Positions 4,014-29,462 of a DNA stretch of 64,000 bases are shown here, piece after piece. This DNA is from Kiritimatiellia bacterium. GTDB taxonomy: Bacteria > Verrucomicrobiota > Kiritimatiellia > CAIVKH01. Every line of letters starts with the position of its first letter. Position 1 is the first letter of the stretch. Both the position numbers and the translations under genes were made by a program. The stretch lies in NCBI GenBank assembly GCA_035327585.1, contig DAOLDD010000013.1:5174-69173 (forward strand), in the 5' to 3' direction. The notes beneath the pieces are model-generated. The model saw nothing but the letters and a program-made list of their open reading frames with translations. It was not told where the DNA came from and did not search any database.

Positions 4014-4080
4014 GTAGTTCCGGCGCTCCGTCGCCGGAATCCCCGGCCCGGGAACTCCGGCGGCAGAGCGCCGGAGCTAC
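4014..4080. repeat. GTAG-type REP doublet (REPIN-like), family A
   Basis: GTAG-TTCCGGCG-CTCCGT-CGCCGGAA, then a spacer, then the inverted copy CTCCGGCG-GCAGAG-CGCCGGAG-CTAC. Confidence 0.85.
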
Positions 4081-4150: not shown

Positions 4151-4929
4151 TTCGTTGGCGCATGCGCTGCATGGTCCTGCTGGCGGCCGTTTGCGCGGGG
4201 GGGGCTCGGGCGGAGTTCGTCCGCGTCGATGCGGGCGTGCACCAACCGCTGTTTAGCAACGAGGCGGCGCAGCCGGTGGCGGCGTTCTGGCTCGCCGACG
4301 CGCCGGTGACGAATGGCGAATTCCTGGAGTTCGTGCGTGCGGAGCCGCGCTGGCGCCGCTCGCGCGCCGGACGCCTGTTCGTCGACGAACGCTATCTCTC
4401 GCATTGGGCCGACGATCTTTTCCTGGGGACCAATGCACCAGTGGACCATCCGGTGACCCATGTGTCCTGGTTCGCCGCGCGCGCCTACGCCCGATGGAAC
4501 GGCGCGCGGCTGCCCACGCTCGCGGAGTGGGAATGGGCGGCGGCGGCGAGCGAGACGAGCAGCGACGGCCGCAGCGACACCAATTTCCTGCCGCGCATCC
4601 TGAACTGGTACAGCCGCCCCGCGAGCACCGGCACACGGCCTGTGCGCAACACGTTCCGCAACGTCTGGGGCGCGTGGGACCTGCACGGGCTGGTGTGGGA
4701 GTGGGTGGAGGATTTTAATACCGCGCTGGTTACCGGTGAATCGCGGGCGGATTCCGCGCTGGAGCGACCGCAATTCTGCGGCGGCGGCGCGGCGGGCGCG
4801 GCCGATGTCGGAAACTATGCCGCCTTCATGCGCTACGCCTTCCGCGGCAGCTTGCATGCCCGCTCCACCGCCTCGTCCCTCGGCTTCCGCTGCGCGCGGG
4901 ACGCGGATACCGGGGAATCCATGCCATGA
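4144..4929 (+). CDS. Formylglycine-generating-enzyme (SUMF1/FGE-sulfatase) domain protein, NirV-like
   Basis: PVTNGEFLEFV, HPVTHVSWFAARAYA, RLPTLAEWEWAA, DLHGLVWEWV and GFRCA motifs; signal peptide; lies directly after nirK. Start uncertain (4126, 4144 or 4162). Confidence 0.88.
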   Translation: MKFRWRMRCMVLLAAVCAGGARAEFVRVDAGVHQPLFSNEAAQPVAAFWLADAPVTNGEFLEFVRAEPRWRRSRAGRLFVDERYLSHWADDLFLGTNAPVDHPVTHVSWFAARAYARWNGARLPTLAEWEWAAAASETSSDGRSDTNFLPRILNWYSRPASTGTRPVRNTFRNVWGAWDLHGLVWEWVEDFNTALVTGESRADSALERPQFCGGGAAGAADVGNYAAFMRYAFRGSLHARSTASSLGFRCARDADTGESMP

Positions 4930-5588
4930 ACACGCGCCCTGTAGACGCGCGCGTTGAGCGCGTTGTCCCAACGCGCCGCGGCGGCTTGGGCCAAGCCGCC
5001 CTACCTTTGCTGTGCTGCGTGTGGGCGCTTCTCGCGTTATGTGCGCACGCCGACTCCTGCTGCGCGTCGAAACCGGCGCCCGCGTCGGAAGAGGAAGCGC
5101 TGCCACTGGATTCGGTCTATCAGCTTGAATCGACCTGGACCAACAGCACTGGCGCGGCGCGGCCGATGGGCGACTTGCGCGGACCGCATCGCATCGTTGT
5201 CATGTTCTACGCCTCGTGCACATATGCGTGTCCAATGCTGGTGGCGGACCTGAAGAAAATCGAGGCGCGCCTGCCCGCGAAGCCCGGGGTGGTGTTCACG
5301 CTGTTTTCCTTCGACGACGAACGCGACACGCCGGCCGCGCTGGCGGCCTTCGCGGAGCGGCAGGGCATCGGCGCGCCGGGCTGGGAGCTGCTGACCGGCC
5401 CGCGTGAGGCGGCGCGCGAAATGGCTGCGGTGCTCGGCGTGCGCTATCGCAAGGAGTCCGGCGGCGCGATCGCGCATTCCAACGAAATTTCGCTGCTTGA
5501 TGGCGAGGGCCGCATCGTCGCGCGGCTCAAGGGATTGAACGAAGATCCGCAACCAATCCTGGAGGCATTGGCGCGCAGCGATGATTGA
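4926..5588 (+). CDS. SCO1/SenC family copper chaperone
   Basis: FYASCTYACP (CxxxC) and the conserved His in IAHSNEISLLD; ATGA overlap with the upstream gene. Confidence 0.92.
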   Translation: MNTRPVDARVERVVPTRRGGLGQAALPLLCCVWALLALCAHADSCCASKPAPASEEEALPLDSVYQLESTWTNSTGAARPMGDLRGPHRIVVMFYASCTYACPMLVADLKKIEARLPAKPGVVFTLFSFDDERDTPAALAAFAERQGIGAPGWELLTGPREAAREMAAVLGVRYRKESGGAIAHSNEISLLDGEGRIVARLKGLNEDPQPILEALARSDD

Positions 5589-14434: not shown

Positions 14435-14509
14435 CGTTCGCGTTCACGTACCCGTACACGCTCCTGGCTTTCGTGATCGTGAACGTGTACGTGAACGTGA
14501 ATGAGAACG
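14435..14509. repeat. Hairpin of inverted hexamer arrays (CGTTCA/CGTGAA), copy 1
   Basis: CGTTCG CGTTCA CGTACC CGTACA CGCTCC ... CGTGAT CGTGAA CGTGTA CGTGAA CGTGAA TGAGAA. Confidence 0.8.
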
Positions 14510-14558: not shown

Positions 14559-15602
14559 ATGTTTGAGCCTGTGACCGGGGAAATTTTCTTTCGCTGCACC
14601 GCGTGCCGCCGCCGCCTGGCGGTCGAGGCGCGCGCGCGCGGGCTCATGGTGGATTGCCCCGGCTGCCACGCTTCCCTTTTGGTGCCGGAACGCTCCACCG
14701 TAACGGACCCCGCCGTGGTGCGGCGCCGCTCGGCCCGTGCCTTCATGCTGATCGGCGGCCTGGCCTGTGGCGCAGCCGGCTGGTGGCTCGCGCGGGGTGG
14801 GGCGGAGGAAGCCGCTGCCGTCGCGCCGGCGCAACCCGCTGTTCGCGAATTGAGCAACCCGCTGCGCGAAGCGCTGGCCGCGCGTTCGAAGACCGGCGCG
14901 TCTTCGGAGCGGGCGCTGGCTGATGCGCGGGCGCTGGAACAGGAATATTCCCATCTCCAATCCGCGCACCGCGCGGTGAGCCGGCAGTACGAGGATCTCG
15001 CGAACTGGGTGCTCACCAACCTGCGTGGACGCTTCCTGCTGAAGGACCGGCATGTCGGCCGCCTGCGGTTCTCACCGGTCGGCGAGGATTATTCCGTGCA
15101 CCCGGACCTCGCCGATTTCCTCGCGGTGAACGAGCAGGAATCGGGCTTGATGCAGGACCTCTTGCAGTATGGACGCGCGGCGCTGCTCGGTTTGCAGCGG
15201 CAGTACGCCGTCACGACGCAGGCCGCGCCCGGCCAGGTCTCCGTCTACATCCCTCCCTTCGATCGCGAAGGCGCCGCGCTGCGCGAAGACCTCTACAGCG
15301 GCCTGCAAACCGTGCTCGGCGCGGATCGCTTCAACCGCATGATCGCCGTGGGCGAGGAGGAGCTCGTCCGCGCCTACGACTACTTCGGCGCCGCCGCGCG
15401 CACGCTTGTGTTCGAACTCGCCATGGACCCCGCGGTTTCCAAACAGCCGTACCTCGTGATTCGAGACGGCTGGGTGATTCCGAAGGACGCGTCGCGCCGC
15501 GTGACCGAAACAACCGAGGAAGCCGTCACCGAACTGCCCCCTCGCTACAACGCCTACCTCCCCCTCCTGCCCGAATTCGTGGCCACCTATGCCAAACCCT
15601 GA
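14559..15602 (+). CDS. Hypothetical bitopic membrane protein with N-terminal zinc ribbon
   Basis: CTAC...CPGC zinc ribbon, one TM helix (FMLIGGLACGAAGWWLA) and a coiled-coil-like segment. Confidence 0.65.
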   Translation: MFEPVTGEIFFRCTACRRRLAVEARARGLMVDCPGCHASLLVPERSTVTDPAVVRRRSARAFMLIGGLACGAAGWWLARGGAEEAAAVAPAQPAVRELSNPLREALAARSKTGASSERALADARALEQEYSHLQSAHRAVSRQYEDLANWVLTNLRGRFLLKDRHVGRLRFSPVGEDYSVHPDLADFLAVNEQESGLMQDLLQYGRAALLGLQRQYAVTTQAAPGQVSVYIPPFDREGAALREDLYSGLQTVLGADRFNRMIAVGEEELVRAYDYFGAAARTLVFELAMDPAVSKQPYLVIRDGWVIPKDASRRVTETTEEAVTELPPRYNAYLPLLPEFVATYAKP

Positions 15603-16314
15603 CGACGCCACTCCGCGCCGTGTGCGCTTGCACAAATACATGGCCGAATGCGGTGTCGCCGCGCGCCGCGCGTGTGAGCGCATCATGCAGGAGGGCCGGG
15701 TGCGCGTGGATGGTGCGGTCGTCCGCGAGCCGGGAACCACCATTGATCCCACCACGCAGCGCGTCGAAGTGGATGGACGCTTGATCAGCCGCGAGCGCTT
15801 CCGCTACCTGCTCTACCACAAGCCGCGCGGCGTGCTCAGCGCGCTCTCCGACGACCGCGGGCGCGGGCACCTCGGCGACGTGCTGCCACCGGAACTCGGA
15901 CGCGTGTACCACGTCGGCCGCCTCGACCAGGACAGCGAGGGCCTGTTGCTGCTCACGAACGACGGCGAATTCGCCGCGCGCATGACGCACCCGCGCTACG
16001 AAATCGAAAAGACCTACCAAGTCTGGTGCACCGGCGAGCCTGATGCCGCCGCGATCCAGCGCATGCTGGACGGCATTGAAGACGACGGCGAACGCCTGCG
16101 CGCTAAACGAATCGACCGCATCGACACGGGCCATTACACCGTCGTGCTGACGGAGGGAAAAAAACGGGAAATCCGCCGCCTCTTCGCCGCTTGCGGCTGC
16201 CCCGTGACGCGCCTGCTGCGCACCGCCGTCGGCCCCGTCCGCCTCGGCGCGCTCTCCACCGGCCTCTTCCGCGACCTCACCCCCGAAGAGGTCGCCACGC
16301 TTCGCGCGCTGTAG
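15589..16314 (+). CDS. rRNA pseudouridine synthase, RsuA/RluB family, with S4 domain
   Basis: RLHKYMAECGVAARRACE S4 domain, YHKPRGV, VGRLDQDSEGLLLLTNDG and EGKKREIRR. Confidence 0.95.
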   Translation: MPNPDDATPRRVRLHKYMAECGVAARRACERIMQEGRVRVDGAVVREPGTTIDPTTQRVEVDGRLISRERFRYLLYHKPRGVLSALSDDRGRGHLGDVLPPELGRVYHVGRLDQDSEGLLLLTNDGEFAARMTHPRYEIEKTYQVWCTGEPDAAAIQRMLDGIEDDGERLRAKRIDRIDTGHYTVVLTEGKKREIRRLFAACGCPVTRLLRTAVGPVRLGALSTGLFRDLTPEEVATLRAL

Positions 16315-16321
16315 GCTACCC

Positions 16322-16380
16322 CTCCGGCGGCGGAGCGCCGGAGCTACAGCCCCTGTAGTTCCGCCGCTCTGTCGGCGGAG
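16322..16380. repeat. GTAG-type REP doublet, family A (GTAG ends facing inward)
   Basis: CTCCGGCG-GCGGAG-CGCCGGAG-CTAC ... GTAG-TTCCGCCG-CTCTGT-CGGCGGAG, between convergent genes. Confidence 0.85.
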
Positions 16381-17804: not shown

Positions 17805-17833
17805 AACTGTTCTGATCGCAGCGGATACTCCCC

Positions 17834-17900
17834 CGTTCACGTTCACGTTACCGTTCACGGTTGTCGTGTACGTGTAGGTGTACGTGAACGTGAACGAGAG
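17834..17900. repeat. Hairpin of inverted hexamer arrays (CGTTCA/CGTGAA), copy 2
   Basis: CGTTCA CGTTCA CGTTAC CGTTCA ... CGTGTA CGTGTA GGTGTA CGTGAA CGTGAA CGAGAG. Confidence 0.8.
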
Positions 17901-17902
17901 AG

Positions 17903-19087: not shown

Positions 19088-19153
19088 TTCCGCCGGCAGA
19101 GCGGCGGAACTACAGCAGAATGCGGTTGTAGCTCCGGCGCTCCGTCGCCGGAG
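19088..19153. repeat. GTAG-type REP doublet, family A
   Basis: TTCCGCCG-GCAGAG-CGGCGGAA-CTAC ... GTAG-CTCCGGCG-CTCCGT-CGCCGGAG. Confidence 0.85.
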
Positions 19154-19223: not shown

Positions 19224-21680
19224 ATGCCGTATCCATTCGCACAACTTGAGCCGAAGTGGCAGGCCTGGTGGCTGGCCCACAAGACCTTCCGCACACCCGA
19301 CCAGCCGGACCCGGCGAAGCCGAAGTTCTATGCGCTGGACATGTTCCCGTATCCGAGTGGAGCGGGGCTGCATGTCGGGCATCCGGAGGGCTACACGGCT
19401 ACGGATATTCTGTGCCGCTACAAGCGGATGAAGGGGTTCAACGTGCTGCACCCGATGGGGTGGGACGCGTTCGGGCTGCCGGCGGAGCAGTACGCGATTG
19501 AGACGGGCACGCACCCGCGCGAGACGACGTATCGGAATATCGACCGGTTTCGCGCGCAGTTGCAGGCGATCGGGTTCTCCTACGACTGGGACCGCGAGTT
19601 CGCGACGACGGATGAGGACTACTACCGTTGGACGCAGTGGATTTTCCTCAAGCTCTACGAGAAGGGCCTCGCCTACCAGGCCGAGGTGCCGGTGAACTGG
19701 TGTCCCGCGCTGGGCACGGTGCTGGCGAACGAGGAGGTCATCGACGGCAAGTCGGAGCGCGGCGGGCATCCCGTCATCCGCAAGCCGATGCGCCAGTGGA
19801 TGCTGAAGATCACGGCCTACGCCGAACGCCTGCTCGAGGATCTCGAACTCGTCAACTGGCCCGAGAGCATCAAGGAGATGCAGCGGAATTGGATCGGGAA
19901 GTCGGAGGGCGCGGAGGTTCACTTCCAGGTCACCGGTCACCGCTCACCGATCACCGTCTTCACGACGCGTCCGGATACGTTGTTCGGGGCGACCTACATG
20001 GTGTTGTCGCCGGAGCATGCGCTGGTGGATGCGATCACGACGCCGGAACAGCGGGCGGCGGTGAAGGCGTATCAGGAGGCGGCATCGCGCAAGAGCGATC
20101 TCGAGCGCACGGAATTGCAGAAGACGAAGTCGGGCGTGTTCACGGGCGCGCATGCGATCAACCCGGTGAACGGCGAGCAAATTCCGATCTGGATCGCCGA
20201 CTACGTGCTCGCGGGCTACGGTACCGGCGCGATCATGGCGGTGCCCGCGCACGATACGCGCGACCACGAATTTGCGCAGACGTACAACCTGCCGATCCGT
20301 CCCGTGGTTGCCGAGGGTAGGGCGCGTTCGCCGAACGCGCCGGACGGCGGTTTCGGCGAAACCGCCCTACCTTTCGTTGGTGACGGATTTGCTGTCAATT
20401 CGCCCTTGATCGACGGGCTGCCGACGCCGGAGGCGAAGAAAAAGATCACCGCGTGGCTGGAGGAGAAAGGCCTCGGCGCGGCGCGCGTGAACTACAAATT
20501 GCGCGACTGGTTGTTCAGCCGCCAGCGGTATTGGGGCGAGCCGTTCCCTATTATTTTTGTCGATGGCGAGGCGAAGCCGCTGGGGCCGGACCAGTTGCCG
20601 GTGCGGCTGCCGGACGTGGCGACGTACAAACCGAGCGGGACGGGCGAAAGTCCGCTGTCCACGATCACCGAGTGGGTGAACACAACGGATCCGGCGACGG
20701 GCCGGTCCGCGGTGCGCGAGACGAACACGATGCCGCAGTGGGCGGGGTCGTGCTGGTACTACCTGCGATTCATCGACCCGAAGAATCCCGGCGCCCCGGT
20801 GGATCCGGCGAAGGAAAAATACTGGATGCCGGTGGACCTCTATGTCGGCGGCGCGGAACACGCGGTGCTGCACCTGCTGTATTCGCGGTTCTGGCACAAG
20901 GTGTTGTTCGACTGCGGCGTGGTGTCCACGAAGGAGCCGTTCCAGCGCCTCGTGAACCAGGGCATGATCCTGGGCGAGGACAACCAGAAGATGAGCAAGT
21001 CGCGCGGGAACGTGGTGAATCCCGACGACGTGATCAAGCAGTACGGCGCGGACGCGCTGCGGCTCTACGAGATGTTCATGGGGCCGCTGGAGGCGGTGAA
21101 GCCGTGGAGCATGCGCGGCGTCGAGGGCGTGTTCCGGTTCCTGAACCGCGTCTATCGGCTGGTGTGCGACGAGGAAACCGGCGCGTTGCTTCCCGCGGTG
21201 GCGGGGGAGCCGACGGTTGAGCAGTTGCGTCCACTGCACGCGATGTTGAAGAAGGTGGGGGACGACATTGAGGGACTGCGCTTCAACACGGCGATTTCCG
21301 CGATGATGGAATTCGTGAACGAGGCGCAGAAGTGGGAGCGTCGCCCGCGCGCGATTTTGGAACGGTTCGTCCTGGCGTTGAGCCCGCTCGCCCCGCATCT
21401 CTCGGAGGAGTTGTGGCAGAAGCTTGGCCACGACCAGAGTCTCGCCTACGAGCCGTGGCCTGCATACGACTCCGCGTTGTTGGTCTCGGACACCATGGAG
21501 ATTCCCGTGCAGGTGAATGGCAAACTGCGCGGCAAGATCGTGGTGCCCGTCGGCGCCGACCAGGACGCCATCGTCGCCGCCGCCCAAGCCGATGAGGGTG
21601 TGCAGTCGCATCTCGCGGGGAAAACGCTGCGCAAGACCATTTTCGTGCCCGGCCGGCTGTTGAATTTCGTGGTTTCTTAG
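19224..21680 (+). CDS. leuS: Leucine--tRNA ligase
   Basis: [14 protein letters not shown] (HIGH), [42 protein letters not shown] and [11 protein letters not shown] at 19224. Confidence 0.98.
19929..19956 (+). repeat. Four tandem NTCACCG heptamers inside leuS
   Basis: GTCACCG GTCACCG CTCACCG ATCACCG, translated as VTGHRSPIT. Confidence 0.8.
20316..20371. repeat. GTAG REP doublet (family B) in frame inside leuS
   Basis: GTAG-GGCGCGTTC-GCC-GAACGCGCC, spacer GGAC, then GGCGGTTTC-GGC-GAAACCGCC-CTAC. GTAG to CTAC is 54 bp, translated as [19 protein letters not shown]. Confidence 0.88.
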
Positions 21681-21727: not shown

Positions 21728-22267
21728 ATGAAGACCTTTGAGGACTTGCCGGTCTGGAAGGCGGGGCGGGAGTTGGTCCGGCGGGTCTACGGGTTTTCGC
21801 GCAAGATTTCCGACCCGGGGTTTTGCGAACAAATCCAACGCGCGGCGGTTTCCGTGCCGTCGAACATCGCCGAGGGCCATGAGCGGGGATCGACGCCGGA
21901 TTTGATCCACTTTCTTTTCATCGCGAAGGGCAGCACAGGTGAGGTGCGTTCGCAACTGTACAACGCGGAGGACCTCGGATATCTGGCTGCCGACGAGGCG
22001 CAGAACTTGCGGCAGGCGTGTCTCGATATCAGCCGTCAGCTCTCCGGCTGGATCCAGTCGATGCAGACGCCCAATTTCCGGGGAGGTCCCCGCCATCACA
22101 AGGAACCTGATCGCGCGTGGGACCGCTTCGTTGAGAAAGCCGGCCTCGAACGCCAGCCGGATGGGCGTTTCATCAAGGTGCGGGAAGCGGGTGTTGTGTA
22201 CGGAAAACGGAAGACGGGAAAACGGAAAACTGGAAAACGGAAGACGGAAGACATGAAGATGGAATAG
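21728..22267 (+). CDS. Four helix bundle protein (23S rRNA IVP / TIGR02436, Avd-like fold) with repeat-encoded basic tail
   Basis: FEDLPVWK...QIQRAAVSVPSNIAEGHERGS...FLFIAKGSTGEVRSQL...DLGYL; C-terminal GKRKT x3 encoded by the repeat array. Confidence 0.92.
   Translation: MKTFEDLPVWKAGRELVRRVYGFSRKISDPGFCEQIQRAAVSVPSNIAEGHERGSTPDLIHFLFIAKGSTGEVRSQLYNAEDLGYLAADEAQNLRQACLDISRQLSGWIQSMQTPNFRGGPRHHKEPDRAWDRFVEKAGLERQPDGRFIKVREAGVVYGKRKTGKRKTGKRKTEDMKME
22201..22259 (+). repeat. Internal direct 7/8-mer array at the 3' end of the four-helix-bundle CDS
   Basis: CGGAAAA CGGAAGA CGGGAAAA CGGAAAA CTGGAAAA CGGAAGA CGGAAGA CATGAAGA. Confidence 0.85.
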
Positions 22268-22278
22268 GTGCGCGGTTC

Positions 22279-22309
22279 TTTTTTCCGTCTTCCTGTCTTC
22301 CGTTTTCCG
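22279..22309 (-). repeat. Right (inverted) 7/8-mer array of the cassette
   Basis: Reverse complement is CGGAAAA CGGAAGA CAGGAAGA CGGAAAAAA, a near mirror of the left array. Confidence 0.85.
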
Positions 22310-25825: not shown

Positions 25826-25845
25826 AAGGGCGTACATTTTCCGGC

Positions 25846-25932
25846 GGAGGGATGGCTGAGTGGTTTAAGGCATCGGTCTTGAAAACCGACGGGCTCGCAA
25901 GGGCCCCGTGAGTTCGAATCTCACTCCCTCCG
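25846..25932 (+). tRNA. tRNA-Ser (anticodon TGA), CCA not encoded
   Basis: GGAGGGA/TCCCTCC acceptor stem, D-loop GAGTGGTTTAAGG, anticodon arm TCGGT-CTTGAAA-ACCGA, long variable arm and GTTCGAATC T-loop. Confidence 0.97.
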
Positions 25933-28339: not shown

Positions 28340-28375
28340 CACAAAAGTGGGGTCAGCCCCCAAAATAGCAAATAG
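28340..28375 (+). repeat. Left terminal inverted repeat of the RAYT-like element
   Basis: CACAAAA-G-TGGGGTCAGCCCCCAAAATAGCAAATAG; the inner 28 bp are a perfect inverse of 29428-29455. Confidence 0.92.
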
Positions 28376-28378
28376 AGC

Positions 28379-28406
28379 TTGCCGCCACTATTTGCGCGTG
28401 TAGAGT
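28379..28406 (+). promoter_or_regulatory. Internal sigma70 promoter of the transposase, probably leaderless
   Basis: TTGCCG-N16-TAGAGT, 7 nt before the ATG at 28414. Confidence 0.5.
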
Positions 28407-28413
28407 CAGGTCT

Positions 28414-29424
28414 ATGGCGCGACCATTGAGGCTTCAGTATGCCGGGGCGATTTATCACGTCACCTTCCGCGGCAATGAAAAACGCAACATTTTTCACGAC
28501 GATTTGGATCGACGCCGCATGCTCGAGACCATGAAGGGATCCGCTGCTCTTTACGGAGTGCGGGCTTTTCTCGTCTGTCTAATGCCAAATCACGTCCACC
28601 TGCTCGTCGAAACACCGCGCGGTAATCTTTCTTCTTTTATGGGCCGCCTACTGACTGCGTATTCCGTGTATTTCAACCGACGTCATCAGCGTGTCGGCCA
28701 CTTGACGCAAGGGCGCTACAAGGCGCAGGTGGTGGAGGGCGACGCCTATTTGATGAAACTCAGCCGTTACATCCATCTCAATCCCGTACAGACCAAAGCC
28801 TTGCGCGATCTGCCGCTGCCAGAACGCCGTCGCCTGTTGCGAAACTTTCCCTGGAGTACTTATCGCGGCTACGCTGGTCTCGATGAGAAGTGGGACTGGA
28901 TTGAGTTCGAACCTGTGTGGGGGTTGCTGCCGAAGTCCGCGGGAGAGCGTGCGGAGCTGGCTTACCGATCGTATGTTGAGACTGGATTGGCCACGACGGA
29001 CGAAGATTTCCTCGAAGCGTACAGTAATGCGCGATTGGCGCTCGGTCCCGATGATTTCCGGCGAGGCGTGGAAGGCCGACACTTAAAACTGTTGAAGGCG
29101 TCCCGCTCGAAGGAGGATGTAGCATTTCGCCGCGCCCCGGCGCTCCAATCCGCACAAACGATATGTCAGGCCGTTGCCACCGTTTTTGGCGTGCCCATGG
29201 CGGAGTTGGTTCGGCGCAAACGTGGCCACCCGGCGAGGGCTGCGCTGTGTTGGTATCTCGTTCATTCGGGAGGATTAACGCAACGAAACGTCGCAGAACT
29301 GGTTGGGTTGCAGGGCGGAACCGCCGTTGCCTATCAATTGAAGCTGTGGGCCACGCGCTGGTCCATACTCGACGAAATAGCACCCATGAAGTCAGCGCTA
29401 AACAGCATGCTCGGAGAGAAGTGA
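28414..29424 (+). CDS. Y1 HUH transposase (RAYT/IS200-like) with C-terminal DnaA-domain-IV-like HTH
   Basis: MARPLR...YHVTFRGN, CLMPNHVHLL (HUH), QGRYKA, RYIHLNPV (catalytic Tyr) and PWSTY; C-terminal helical HTH. Confidence 0.93.
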   Translation: MARPLRLQYAGAIYHVTFRGNEKRNIFHDDLDRRRMLETMKGSAALYGVRAFLVCLMPNHVHLLVETPRGNLSSFMGRLLTAYSVYFNRRHQRVGHLTQGRYKAQVVEGDAYLMKLSRYIHLNPVQTKALRDLPLPERRRLLRNFPWSTYRGYAGLDEKWDWIEFEPVWGLLPKSAGERAELAYRSYVETGLATTDEDFLEAYSNARLALGPDDFRRGVEGRHLKLLKASRSKEDVAFRRAPALQSAQTICQAVATVFGVPMAELVRRKRGHPARAALCWYLVHSGGLTQRNVAELVGLQGGTAVAYQLKLWATRWSILDEIAPMKSALNSMLGEK

Positions 29425-29427
29425 TCA

Positions 29428-29462
29428 CTATTTGCTATTTTGGGGGCTGACCCCATTTTGTG
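29428..29462 (-). repeat. Right terminal inverted repeat of the RAYT-like element
   Basis: CTATTTGCTATTTTGGGGGCTGACCCCA-TTTTGTG. Confidence 0.92.

Follow-up and report, generated by a model that had tools for sequence, protein, structure and literature searches.

A GTAG-type REP doublet in frame within the editing domain of a Kiritimatiellia leucyl-tRNA synthetase

How does an inverted pair of repetitive extragenic palindromes (REPs) come to lie in the reading frame of an essential aminoacyl-tRNA synthetase, and does it do anything there? The question is raised by a 64,000-nucleotide (nt) stretch of DNA from an uncultured Kiritimatiellia bacterium (assembly GCA_035327585.1, contig DAOLDD010000013.1, positions 5,174 to 69,173), referred to below as the window, in which the leucyl-tRNA synthetase (LeuRS) gene leuS, in general an essential gene, carries a 56-nt REP doublet in the part that encodes the CP1 editing domain. 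The evidence set out below indicates that a REP doublet has replaced a permissive surface loop of CP1, and that the insert is most likely tolerated and not functional. The locus would then be a clean, datable case in which selfish palindromic DNA has become part of a protein, here within the proofreading domain of an enzyme essential to translation.

The doublet in the LeuRS editing domain

The leuS gene occupies positions 19224–21680 on the plus strand and encodes 818 amino acids, with matches to Pfam tRNA-synt_1, tRNA-synt_1_2 and Anticodon_1. Its translation contains the LeuRS motifs HVGH and KMSKS and the editing motifs TTRPDT (T-rich) and AHDTRD, and it matches the LeuRS of Thermus thermophilus in the PDB with E = 4.6e-247. 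The CP1 editing domain comprises residues 221–413 (19884–20462, plus strand; Pfam PF13603, 220 bits), and the insert, corresponding to residues 365–383, lies within it, about 20 residues downstream of AHDTRD. The open reading frame (ORF) continues across the insert with no stop and no frameshift, and the placement of the doublet in frame in the editing domain, as proposed in a preliminary description of this DNA, is borne out by both the ORF and the PF13603 match.

Several features characterize the element itself (20316–20371, assigned to neither strand). First, a repeat search finds two inverted arms of 27 nt each (20316–20342 and 20345–20371) that are 85% complementary with 2 nt between them, the whole reading GGTAGGGCGCGTTCGCCGAACGCGCC-GGAC-GGCGGTTTCGGCGAAACCGCCCTACC. 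Secondly, each arm contains one REP unit, GTAGGGCGCGTTCGCCGAACGCGCC on the plus strand at 20317–20341 and GTAGGGCGGTTTCGCCGAAACCGCC, read on the minus strand, at 20346–20370; no chance match to either 25-mer appeared in the window in 100 shuffles. Thirdly, there is a perfect 10-bp palindrome in each arm (20321–20330/20332–20341 and 20346–20355/20357–20366), and these are equally readable as 9-bp stems with GCC and GGC loops, in agreement with the two perfect, GTAG-footed hairpins in inverted orientation noted previously. Finally, the 91 nt of RNA around the doublet fold to −53.7 kcal/mol (z = −4.1). A search of the insert against Rfam gave chance-level matches only (mir-3180, E = 0.72), and no terminator-like site or tail was found at the leuS insert.

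The structural setting of the insert is seen in an AlphaFold2 model of residues 215–430 built on 79 sequences, which has a predicted local distance difference test score (pLDDT) of 89.8 and supersedes a poor full-length model (pLDDT 51.5) built on 21 near-identical sequences. Foldseek superposes the domain model on T. thermophilus LeuRS (1OBH, TMq 0.88) and on the CP1 domain of Streptococcus pneumoniae (4K47, TMt 0.94). The insert is modeled as a coil between two strands, without predicted secondary structure and with pLDDT of 62–71 against 95–98 for the remainder, and thus maps to a low-confidence surface coil. The corresponding loop has 14 residues in the solved LeuRS structure of T. thermophilus and nine in those of S. 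pneumoniae and Mycobacterium tuberculosis, compared to 21 in the window, and its length ranges from 8 to 42 residues among the 79 homologues. On this model the insert is most plausibly a flexible extension of a surface loop whose length varies naturally, and we infer that leuS is translated through the insert and that the insert is neutral for LeuRS function.

No target-site duplication accompanies the element, whose flanks read GCCGAG / GGTAGG...CCTACC / TTTCGT; instead, 30 nt of target are gone. A miniature inverted-repeat transposable element, with terminal inverted repeats (TIRs) and a target-site duplication, is ruled out because no direct repeat of the target flanks the element, and an intein because the insert is much too short and lacks the motifs. 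A bypass of the T4 gene-60 type or a frameshift site is likewise ruled out by the absence of an in-frame stop and of a slippery site, and an intragenic inverton is disfavoured, a single orientation having been seen, in contigs only. The stretch with the insert is present with zero differences in Logan contigs of two activated-sludge runs, at ~42x and ~58x, which are probably the source sample, and no leuS variant without the insert was seen in the DNA contigs of the runs found.

The native loop and the REP family

When LeuRS is aligned with 20 close relatives (74–94% identity), 19 of them lack the insert and have a 10-residue loop (QPTDGSDPIG or a near variant) between ...LPIRVVV and F(V/T)GDG. 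The twentieth, P0003, is encoded at locus L001 of a second species in a different ENA assembly, and has an orthologous insert with a single change, from GTAGG to GTGGG, replacing R with G. The preliminary description had taken the loop to be longer than in other LeuRS proteins; this holds for the 19 close relatives and not as something unusual for any LeuRS, given the loop lengths in the solved structures. In the DNA, locus L002 (89% nt identity) has the native 30-nt loop where the window has 63 nt (20310–20372, plus strand, 21 residues in place of QPTDGSDPIG, as defined by protein alignment and by codon comparison with L001 and L002), which leaves leuS longer by a net 33 nt or 11 codons. The 54 bp (18 codons) reported earlier as a clean insertion are correct for the span bounded by GTAG (20317–20320) and CTAC (20367–20370), and do not measure the size of the indel. 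At the left side GCCGA is a possible remnant of the native loop, matching the ancestral CAGCCGACG with a shift of 2 nt, although the match is weak.

The orthologous copies in two species permit a test at synonymous sites. Between the window and L001 the leuS genes have a synonymous divergence (dS) of 0.41 and a non-synonymous divergence (dN) of 0.033, so that with dN/dS = 0.08 the insert-bearing gene is under strong purifying selection. Within the insert none of ~18 synonymous sites differs, compared to 32% in the rest of the gene (P ~0.0009), and just 1.6% of the 21-codon windows in leuS are equally conserved; the stems are perfect in both species. Protein-level selection cannot explain frozen stems and synonymous sites, and the comparison points to a constraint on DNA or RNA, not on the peptide. 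An intergenic doublet of a second GTAG family (family A, see below) at 16322–16379 differs from its orthologue at L001 3583–3640 only in the loops and spacers, and because stems are conserved there too, the constraint acts on REP stems generally and is not specific to leuS. The insert also contains codons that are rare in the long genes of the window, AGG (2.3% of Arg), CTA (0.9% of Leu) and CCT (4.2% of Pro), which are there because the GTAG and CTAC feet impose them; CTA and CCT are kept in both the window and L001, and L001 has GGG for AGG.

The window, L001 and L002 group together in the LeuRS tree with support of 0.997, and their dS values describe a near-trichotomy. The simplest reading of these sequences, not a proven one, is that of a single ancestral insertion. 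There is no GTAG hairpin in L002 across 22 kb, and at the position of the doublet upstream of leuS (19088–19153) L001 has a heptamer foldback and L002 has unrelated sequence; REP content therefore turns over between these species.

To place the leuS element among REPs, one genome per species was scanned with the unit pattern GTAGGGCGNNTTNGCCNAANNCGCC (the family unit motif can also be written GTAGGGCG..TT.GCC.AA..CGCC). The family is present at no fewer than 119 loci across the Verrucomicrobiota, Kiritimatiellia, Lentisphaerae, Planctomycetota, Hydrogenedentota, Acidobacteriota, Armatimonadota and a few other groups, where base composition would predict a handful by chance. At the three base pairs that the pattern leaves free, 111 of the 132 units listed (84%) complete a perfect 10-bp palindrome, compared to ~1.6% by chance; the pattern-free position before GTAG is G in 94% of the units listed, and there is covariation between the stem columns. 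The arrangement met most often among the family loci listed is a compact inverted doublet, and the leuS heterodimer with its 2-nt spacer recurs in several metagenome-assembled genomes (MAGs). Among the 119 loci listed from other genomes, the right leuS unit is the commonest subtype and the left unit the third commonest. A GTAG-type REP unit is 20–40 nt long, with a 5′ GTAG tetranucleotide followed by a GC-rich palindrome, and the leuS element has this foot and palindrome, forms an inverted pair, and belongs to a dispersed multi-copy family.

Three ORFs in other genomes are flanked on both sides by units of the family: L016:1239–1730, L114:5835–6302 and L045:5331–6008, of which the third belongs to the isolate Ereboglobus sp. 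PH5-10. They score 84.1, 94.5 and 79.4 bits, respectively, against NCBIfam NF047646 (REP-associated tyrosine transposase, RAYT; cut-off 80), and carry HUH and YIxxNP motifs. With its units flanking these ORFs, this is a genuine family of GTAG REPs and of REP doublets forming hairpins (REPINs), with REPtrons, and the survey shows one REP type with its predicted RAYTs spanning several phyla. A Y1 transposase in L068 was dismissed as a cognate RAYT, since no family units flank it.

The family is overwhelmingly extragenic. Of 126 elements within loci fetched from other genomes, 12 lie in frames that stay open on each side for 100 codons or more, and ten of these were scanned against Pfam: seven have no match, two (L042 and L082) match only away from the element, and one (L026) is truly intragenic. 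There, an AcrB/RND gene from a Verrucomicrobiota MAG (L026:2730–6302, minus strand) contains a doublet of the same family, with a 45-nt spacer and in frame, with Pfam ACR_tran profile positions 2–493 before the doublet and 508–914 after it. The 64-kb window has two family loci, that in leuS and a cluster at 4939–5004, and both lie inside ORFs, unlike the extragenic norm. The three intergenic doublets of the window, at 4014–4080, 16322–16379 and 19088–19153, belong to family A, a second GTAG family with 8-bp stems and 6-nt loops and the unit GTAG-[CT]TCCGSCG-6 nt-CGSCGGAR, and the leuS family is distinct from it, as the preliminary description had supposed.

Recurrent inserts and competing explanations

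Long CP1 loops occur in several separate clades of the LeuRS tree, and DNA was obtained for four. In L125 (P0051, GCA_043802525.1), whose leuS is 74% identical to that of the window in nucleotides and 73% in amino acids, the loop at the same place reads GGTAGGGCGCGCTCGCCGAGCGCGCC-GAGC-GGCGGTTTCGGCGAAACCGCCCTACC, in frame and with the same orientation and 3′ junction (CTACC-N-TTC). Its right unit is that of the window and its left unit is off by one compensatory pair. Neither the sister P0090 nor the outgroup P0094 carries this doublet (support 0.999 and 1.0). The inserts of the window and L125 are 92% identical, while the flanks are 59–72% identical and no more alike than the rest of the gene; without raised identity in the flanks, a recombination tract that moved the insert between the two is ruled against.

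L126 (P0090) and L143 (P0034), in two clades, contain a related cluster of 3–4 hairpins with the same boundaries, that of L143 ending in ...GCGCTACCTTT. The peptide of P0026 indicates that it probably has a cluster of this type, and its sister P0030 has a 42-residue loop. In L142 (P0052) a third GTAG family (GTAG-GGGCAGGC...) occupies the CP1 loop, and there is a second doublet near residue 242. REP-like inserts are found at other LeuRS sites in P0052 and P0086 (after residues 27, 147, ~242 and ~661), and the CP1 loop is therefore a favoured, not the sole, site. Those of P0086, after residues 27, 147 and 661, are several GGTPMPP- or AGTPVPP-type inserts seen at the peptide level, and they resemble the GTAG-19 peptides of Opitutus terrae. 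Taken together, the sequences indicate that at least four lineages besides this one have independently acquired palindromic inserts in the loop, in one case with the same doublet type and junction. At least three palindromic families have invaded this single LeuRS loop independently of one another, and in two of the invasions both the doublet and the junction are the same. The independent inserts encode unrelated peptides.

A metagenome scan with a peptide-degenerate pattern of the insert followed by (V/T)GDG gave 0 matches. With CGCCCTACC joined to F(V/T)GDG there were 14, mostly in unrelated genes (e.g. ParC/GyrA-type ‘RALPFVGDG’), and the only LeuRS genes among them are L137 and L139, two JGI metagenome contigs with the possible remnant EPTAEAKPKEGTAALPF. 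Their CP1 loop reads EPTAEAKPKEGTAALP before FTGDG (DNA ...GAGGCGAAACC...GGCCGCCCTACCC), and may be what is left of the same REP unit after decay and loss of its palindrome. A change of another kind is present in the LeuRS of P0046, which has two 47-residue internal duplications compared to all other LeuRS proteins, after residues 147 and 324; these may reflect misassembly.

In the explanation that we favour, the 56-nt element is a copy of a GTAG-type REP doublet, or REPIN, of a kind widespread in the Planctomycetes–Verrucomicrobia–Chlamydiae (PVC) superphylum and mobilised now or formerly by RAYTs. It would have entered the DNA of the short, length-variable CP1 loop between the ...LPIRxVV strand and the F(V/T)GDG strand, replacing the native 10-codon loop and adding 11 codons with no stop, so that the gene would be read straight through and the protein would gain a 21-residue, probably disordered loop. 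The peptide of this loop, rare codons included, would be set by the palindromes and not by protein selection. The insert would persist because the loop tolerates added residues, with LeuRS staying under strong purifying selection, and the palindromes would be kept by a general constraint on REP stems, for which recognition of the hairpin or its recognition by protein, and self-correction of the palindrome, are candidates. Four observations sit uneasily with this explanation. First, the native loop has been replaced and not interrupted, and simple cut-and-paste transposition predicts otherwise. Secondly, the lack of any synonymous change in the insert over a dS of 0.41 exceeds what strict neutrality would lead one to expect. 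Thirdly, the clade of the window and L001 has weak support (0.61). Fourthly, a search of the contigs from both source runs gave no second copy of the 64-nt doublet at 80% likeness or above.

Of the alternatives, the one that survives best, though we consider it unlikely, is that the recurrence reflects targeting or lateral spread and not tolerance alone, through preferential capture of REPINs or patch recombination between species. Targeting could proceed by way of a Phe codon TT(T/C) that matches the CTACCTTT end of the family, by local single-stranded DNA structure, or by turnover of one REP by another. Several of the patterns described above speak for it: the same doublet type, orientation and 3′ junction in L125 with neither its sister nor the outgroup carrying it, the shared boundaries of the hairpin clusters in the separate clades of L126 and L143, an insert far more alike than its flanks between the window and L125, and the near-trichotomy of the window, L001 and L002. 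In addition, the ancestral loop is wholly replaced in the window, L125, L126 and L143, with the CTACC foot running up against the conserved Phe codon in the window, L125 and L143. Such a junction, with the loop lost, is not obviously predicted by random insertion followed by survivorship. However, the further inserts in P0052 and P0086 show that the site is not unique, and the P0052 doublet lies in mid-loop, with possible native residues on both sides, such that the junction is not universal. The left junctions of the window and L125 differ, no tract of raised identity adjoins the insert as a sign of recombination, and a similar pattern would arise if inserts simply survived in the loop where an essential gene is most permissive. 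A stronger form of this proposal, and a still less probable one, is that the CP1 loop is a preferred landing or exchange site for REPINs in PVC bacteria, at which a templated, sequence- or structure-directed replacement joins CTACC to the Phe codon and is followed by retention at the nucleotide level. REPINs would then be site-selective remodelers of a conserved essential enzyme and not random survivors.

It is more doubtful again that the hairpins have a nucleic-acid role specific to leuS, either as mRNA structure that paces translation of CP1 or stabilises the transcript, or as a DNA site for a host factor. The frozen synonymous sites, the perfect stems in both species, the very stable fold and the way in which hairpin elements of other lineages have repeatedly occupied this site would all fit such a role. 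But the family-A doublet at 16322–16379 conserves its stems in the same way, so that the constraint belongs to REPs at large, and a hairpin is absent at this place from most relatives and from most bacteria. Nor is there an Rfam match or a terminator-like tail, or a slippery site or in-frame stop that would hint at recoding of leuS.

Recruitment of the peptide for LeuRS function, e.g. in modulating editing or handling of the tRNA 3′ end, we regard as very unlikely. A peripheral insertion in the CP1 domain of Aquifex aeolicus LeuRS reportedly modulates editing. The insert in the window lies close behind the AHDTRD editing motif and is kept in two species in a gene under strong purifying selection, and the PDB includes an A. 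aeolicus CP1 variant minus a 20-residue segment (3PZ5, AaLeuRS-CP1-D20), which is a lead only. Against this, the independent inserts in the same loop encode unrelated peptides, the sole difference between the window and L001 in the insert is non-synonymous (R to G), model confidence is low with no predicted secondary structure, the rare codons are dictated by the palindrome, and selection on the protein would not freeze synonymous sites. Finally, an artefact, whether a misassembly or an ancestral long loop that is palindromic by accident, has nothing in its favour beyond the metagenome-assembled source and can be set aside in view of the identical sequence in Logan contigs at 42–58x, the orthologous insert in a second species and another assembly, the short conserved loop of the relatives, and units that are the first and third commonest subtypes among the loci listed.

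Other elements in the window and known systems

The second locus of the leuS family in the window is a cluster of about three units at 4939–5004 (assigned to neither strand), the last of them GGCGGCTTGGGCCAAGCCGCCCTAC, which is in frame as codons 5–27 of an ORF at 4926–5588 with a match to Pfam SCO1-SenC, and precedes a hydrophobic signal or anchor segment. The putative ATG start of this ORF overlaps the upstream stop (ATGA), an arrangement conserved in the window, L122 and L124. The orthologous cluster in L122 is 10 codons longer, in frame, and its last unit differs by three compensatory pairs; the SCO1 gene of L124 is without the cluster. REPs in N-terminal positions may be bypassed by use of a downstream start (Di Nocera et al., PMC3733652).

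The window also contains a single Y1/HUH transposase ORF, at 28414–29424 (region 28340–29462), 336 amino acids long with a long C-terminal extension, scoring 56.5 bits against Pfam Y1_Tnp and 63.2 bits against NCBIfam REP_Tyr_transpos, which falls short of the cut-off of 80. On either side it has a TIR of ~34 nt (~28342–28375 and ~29428–29460) containing GGGGTCAG, and it matches the class of TIR-flanked TIRYT genes (TIRtrons) with the GGGGWSAS motif (Di Nocera et al. 2013, PMC3733652). As a TIR-flanked TIRYT, unrelated to the leuS family, it was dismissed as the cognate RAYT. At 14437–14501, 17828–17902 and 22201–22309, short tandem repeats (heptamers of the GTTCACG type and units of the GGAAAACGGAAGACGG type) are arranged in inverted runs that form intergenic foldbacks. 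In L001 a ~0.5-kb insertion at ~15430–15900, with a small GIY-YIG-like ORF, lies beside a tRNA gene and duplicates the first 21 nt of that gene (GGAGGGATGGCTGAGTGGTTT); the window has the tRNA at ~25843–25932 without the insertion.

The closest known systems are the intragenic REPs described by Di Nocera, De Gregorio & Rocco (2013, BMC Genomics 14:522; PMC3733652), who list many intragenic GTAG and CGTC REPs and report GTAG REPs in the PVC superphylum, such that a translated REP is not the unprecedented finding that the preliminary description took it to be. More than half of their intragenic REPs are dimers encoding 20–30 residues, and intragenic REPs reach their highest number in the verrucomicrobium Opitutus terrae. 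The host genes include those of GlyRS (X. oryzae and E. litoralis), IleRS (E. litoralis) and the AcrB-like Oter_1122, to which the L026 doublet is analogous, and the same study describes both RAYT genes flanked by REPs (REPtrons) and TIRtrons (PMC3733652). The leuS element resembles these REPs in its GTAG foot and GC-rich hairpin, its close inverted dimer and its position in frame. It differs in lying in a Kiritimatiellia MAG and in the CP1 domain of leuS, in having replaced the native loop, and in having an orthologue in a second species that allows a synonymous-site test. We did not find recurrent occupation of one LeuRS loop in that report, in which recB of two Xanthomonas species is the only case noted of a shared site (PMC3733652).

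A second comparison is with the Rickettsia palindromic elements (RPEs; Ogata et al. 2000, cited in PMC3733652), which that citation describes as in-frame palindromic repeats in protein-coding genes. They are alike in being in-frame palindromes that enter genes, essential ones included, and add a surface peptide without destroying function. RPE-1 is longer, at about 100–150 nt, and we know of no link between RPEs and RAYTs. RPE-4 and RPE-6 belong to the CGTC class (PMC3733652), and the host is an obligate intracellular alphaproteobacterium.

With REPIN–RAYT systems (Bertels & Rainey 2011, PLoS Genet, PMC3116915) the element shares its anatomy, an inverted REP pair prone to form hairpins, and its family flanks RAYTs in three other genomes. 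REPIN populations described to date are extragenic, of high copy number and largely lineage-specific, whereas the leuS family has its 25-mers across several phyla and the copy described here is coding. A further difference is that no sibling doublet of the leuS type, at 80% likeness or above, occurs in the contigs of the two source runs. To our knowledge the CP1 insertion of Aquifex aeolicus does not derive from a repeat. It likewise adds a peripheral segment to a canonical CP1 fold (PDB 3O0A and 3PZ5), as do other natural peripheral insertions of this kind.

Intragenic, translated REP dimers were thus already known, and current understanding is not overturned; the LeuRS case adds a host lineage and a gene, extending the catalogue of intragenic REPs to the Kiritimatiellia and to LeuRS. 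What is new is the replacement of a loop, the evidence from synonymous sites, the spread of one unit type with its RAYTs across phyla, and the repeated invasion of one LeuRS loop. That loop marks a natural permissive site, and offers a manageable setting in which to ask whether REPINs insert by targeting or are only filtered by tolerance.

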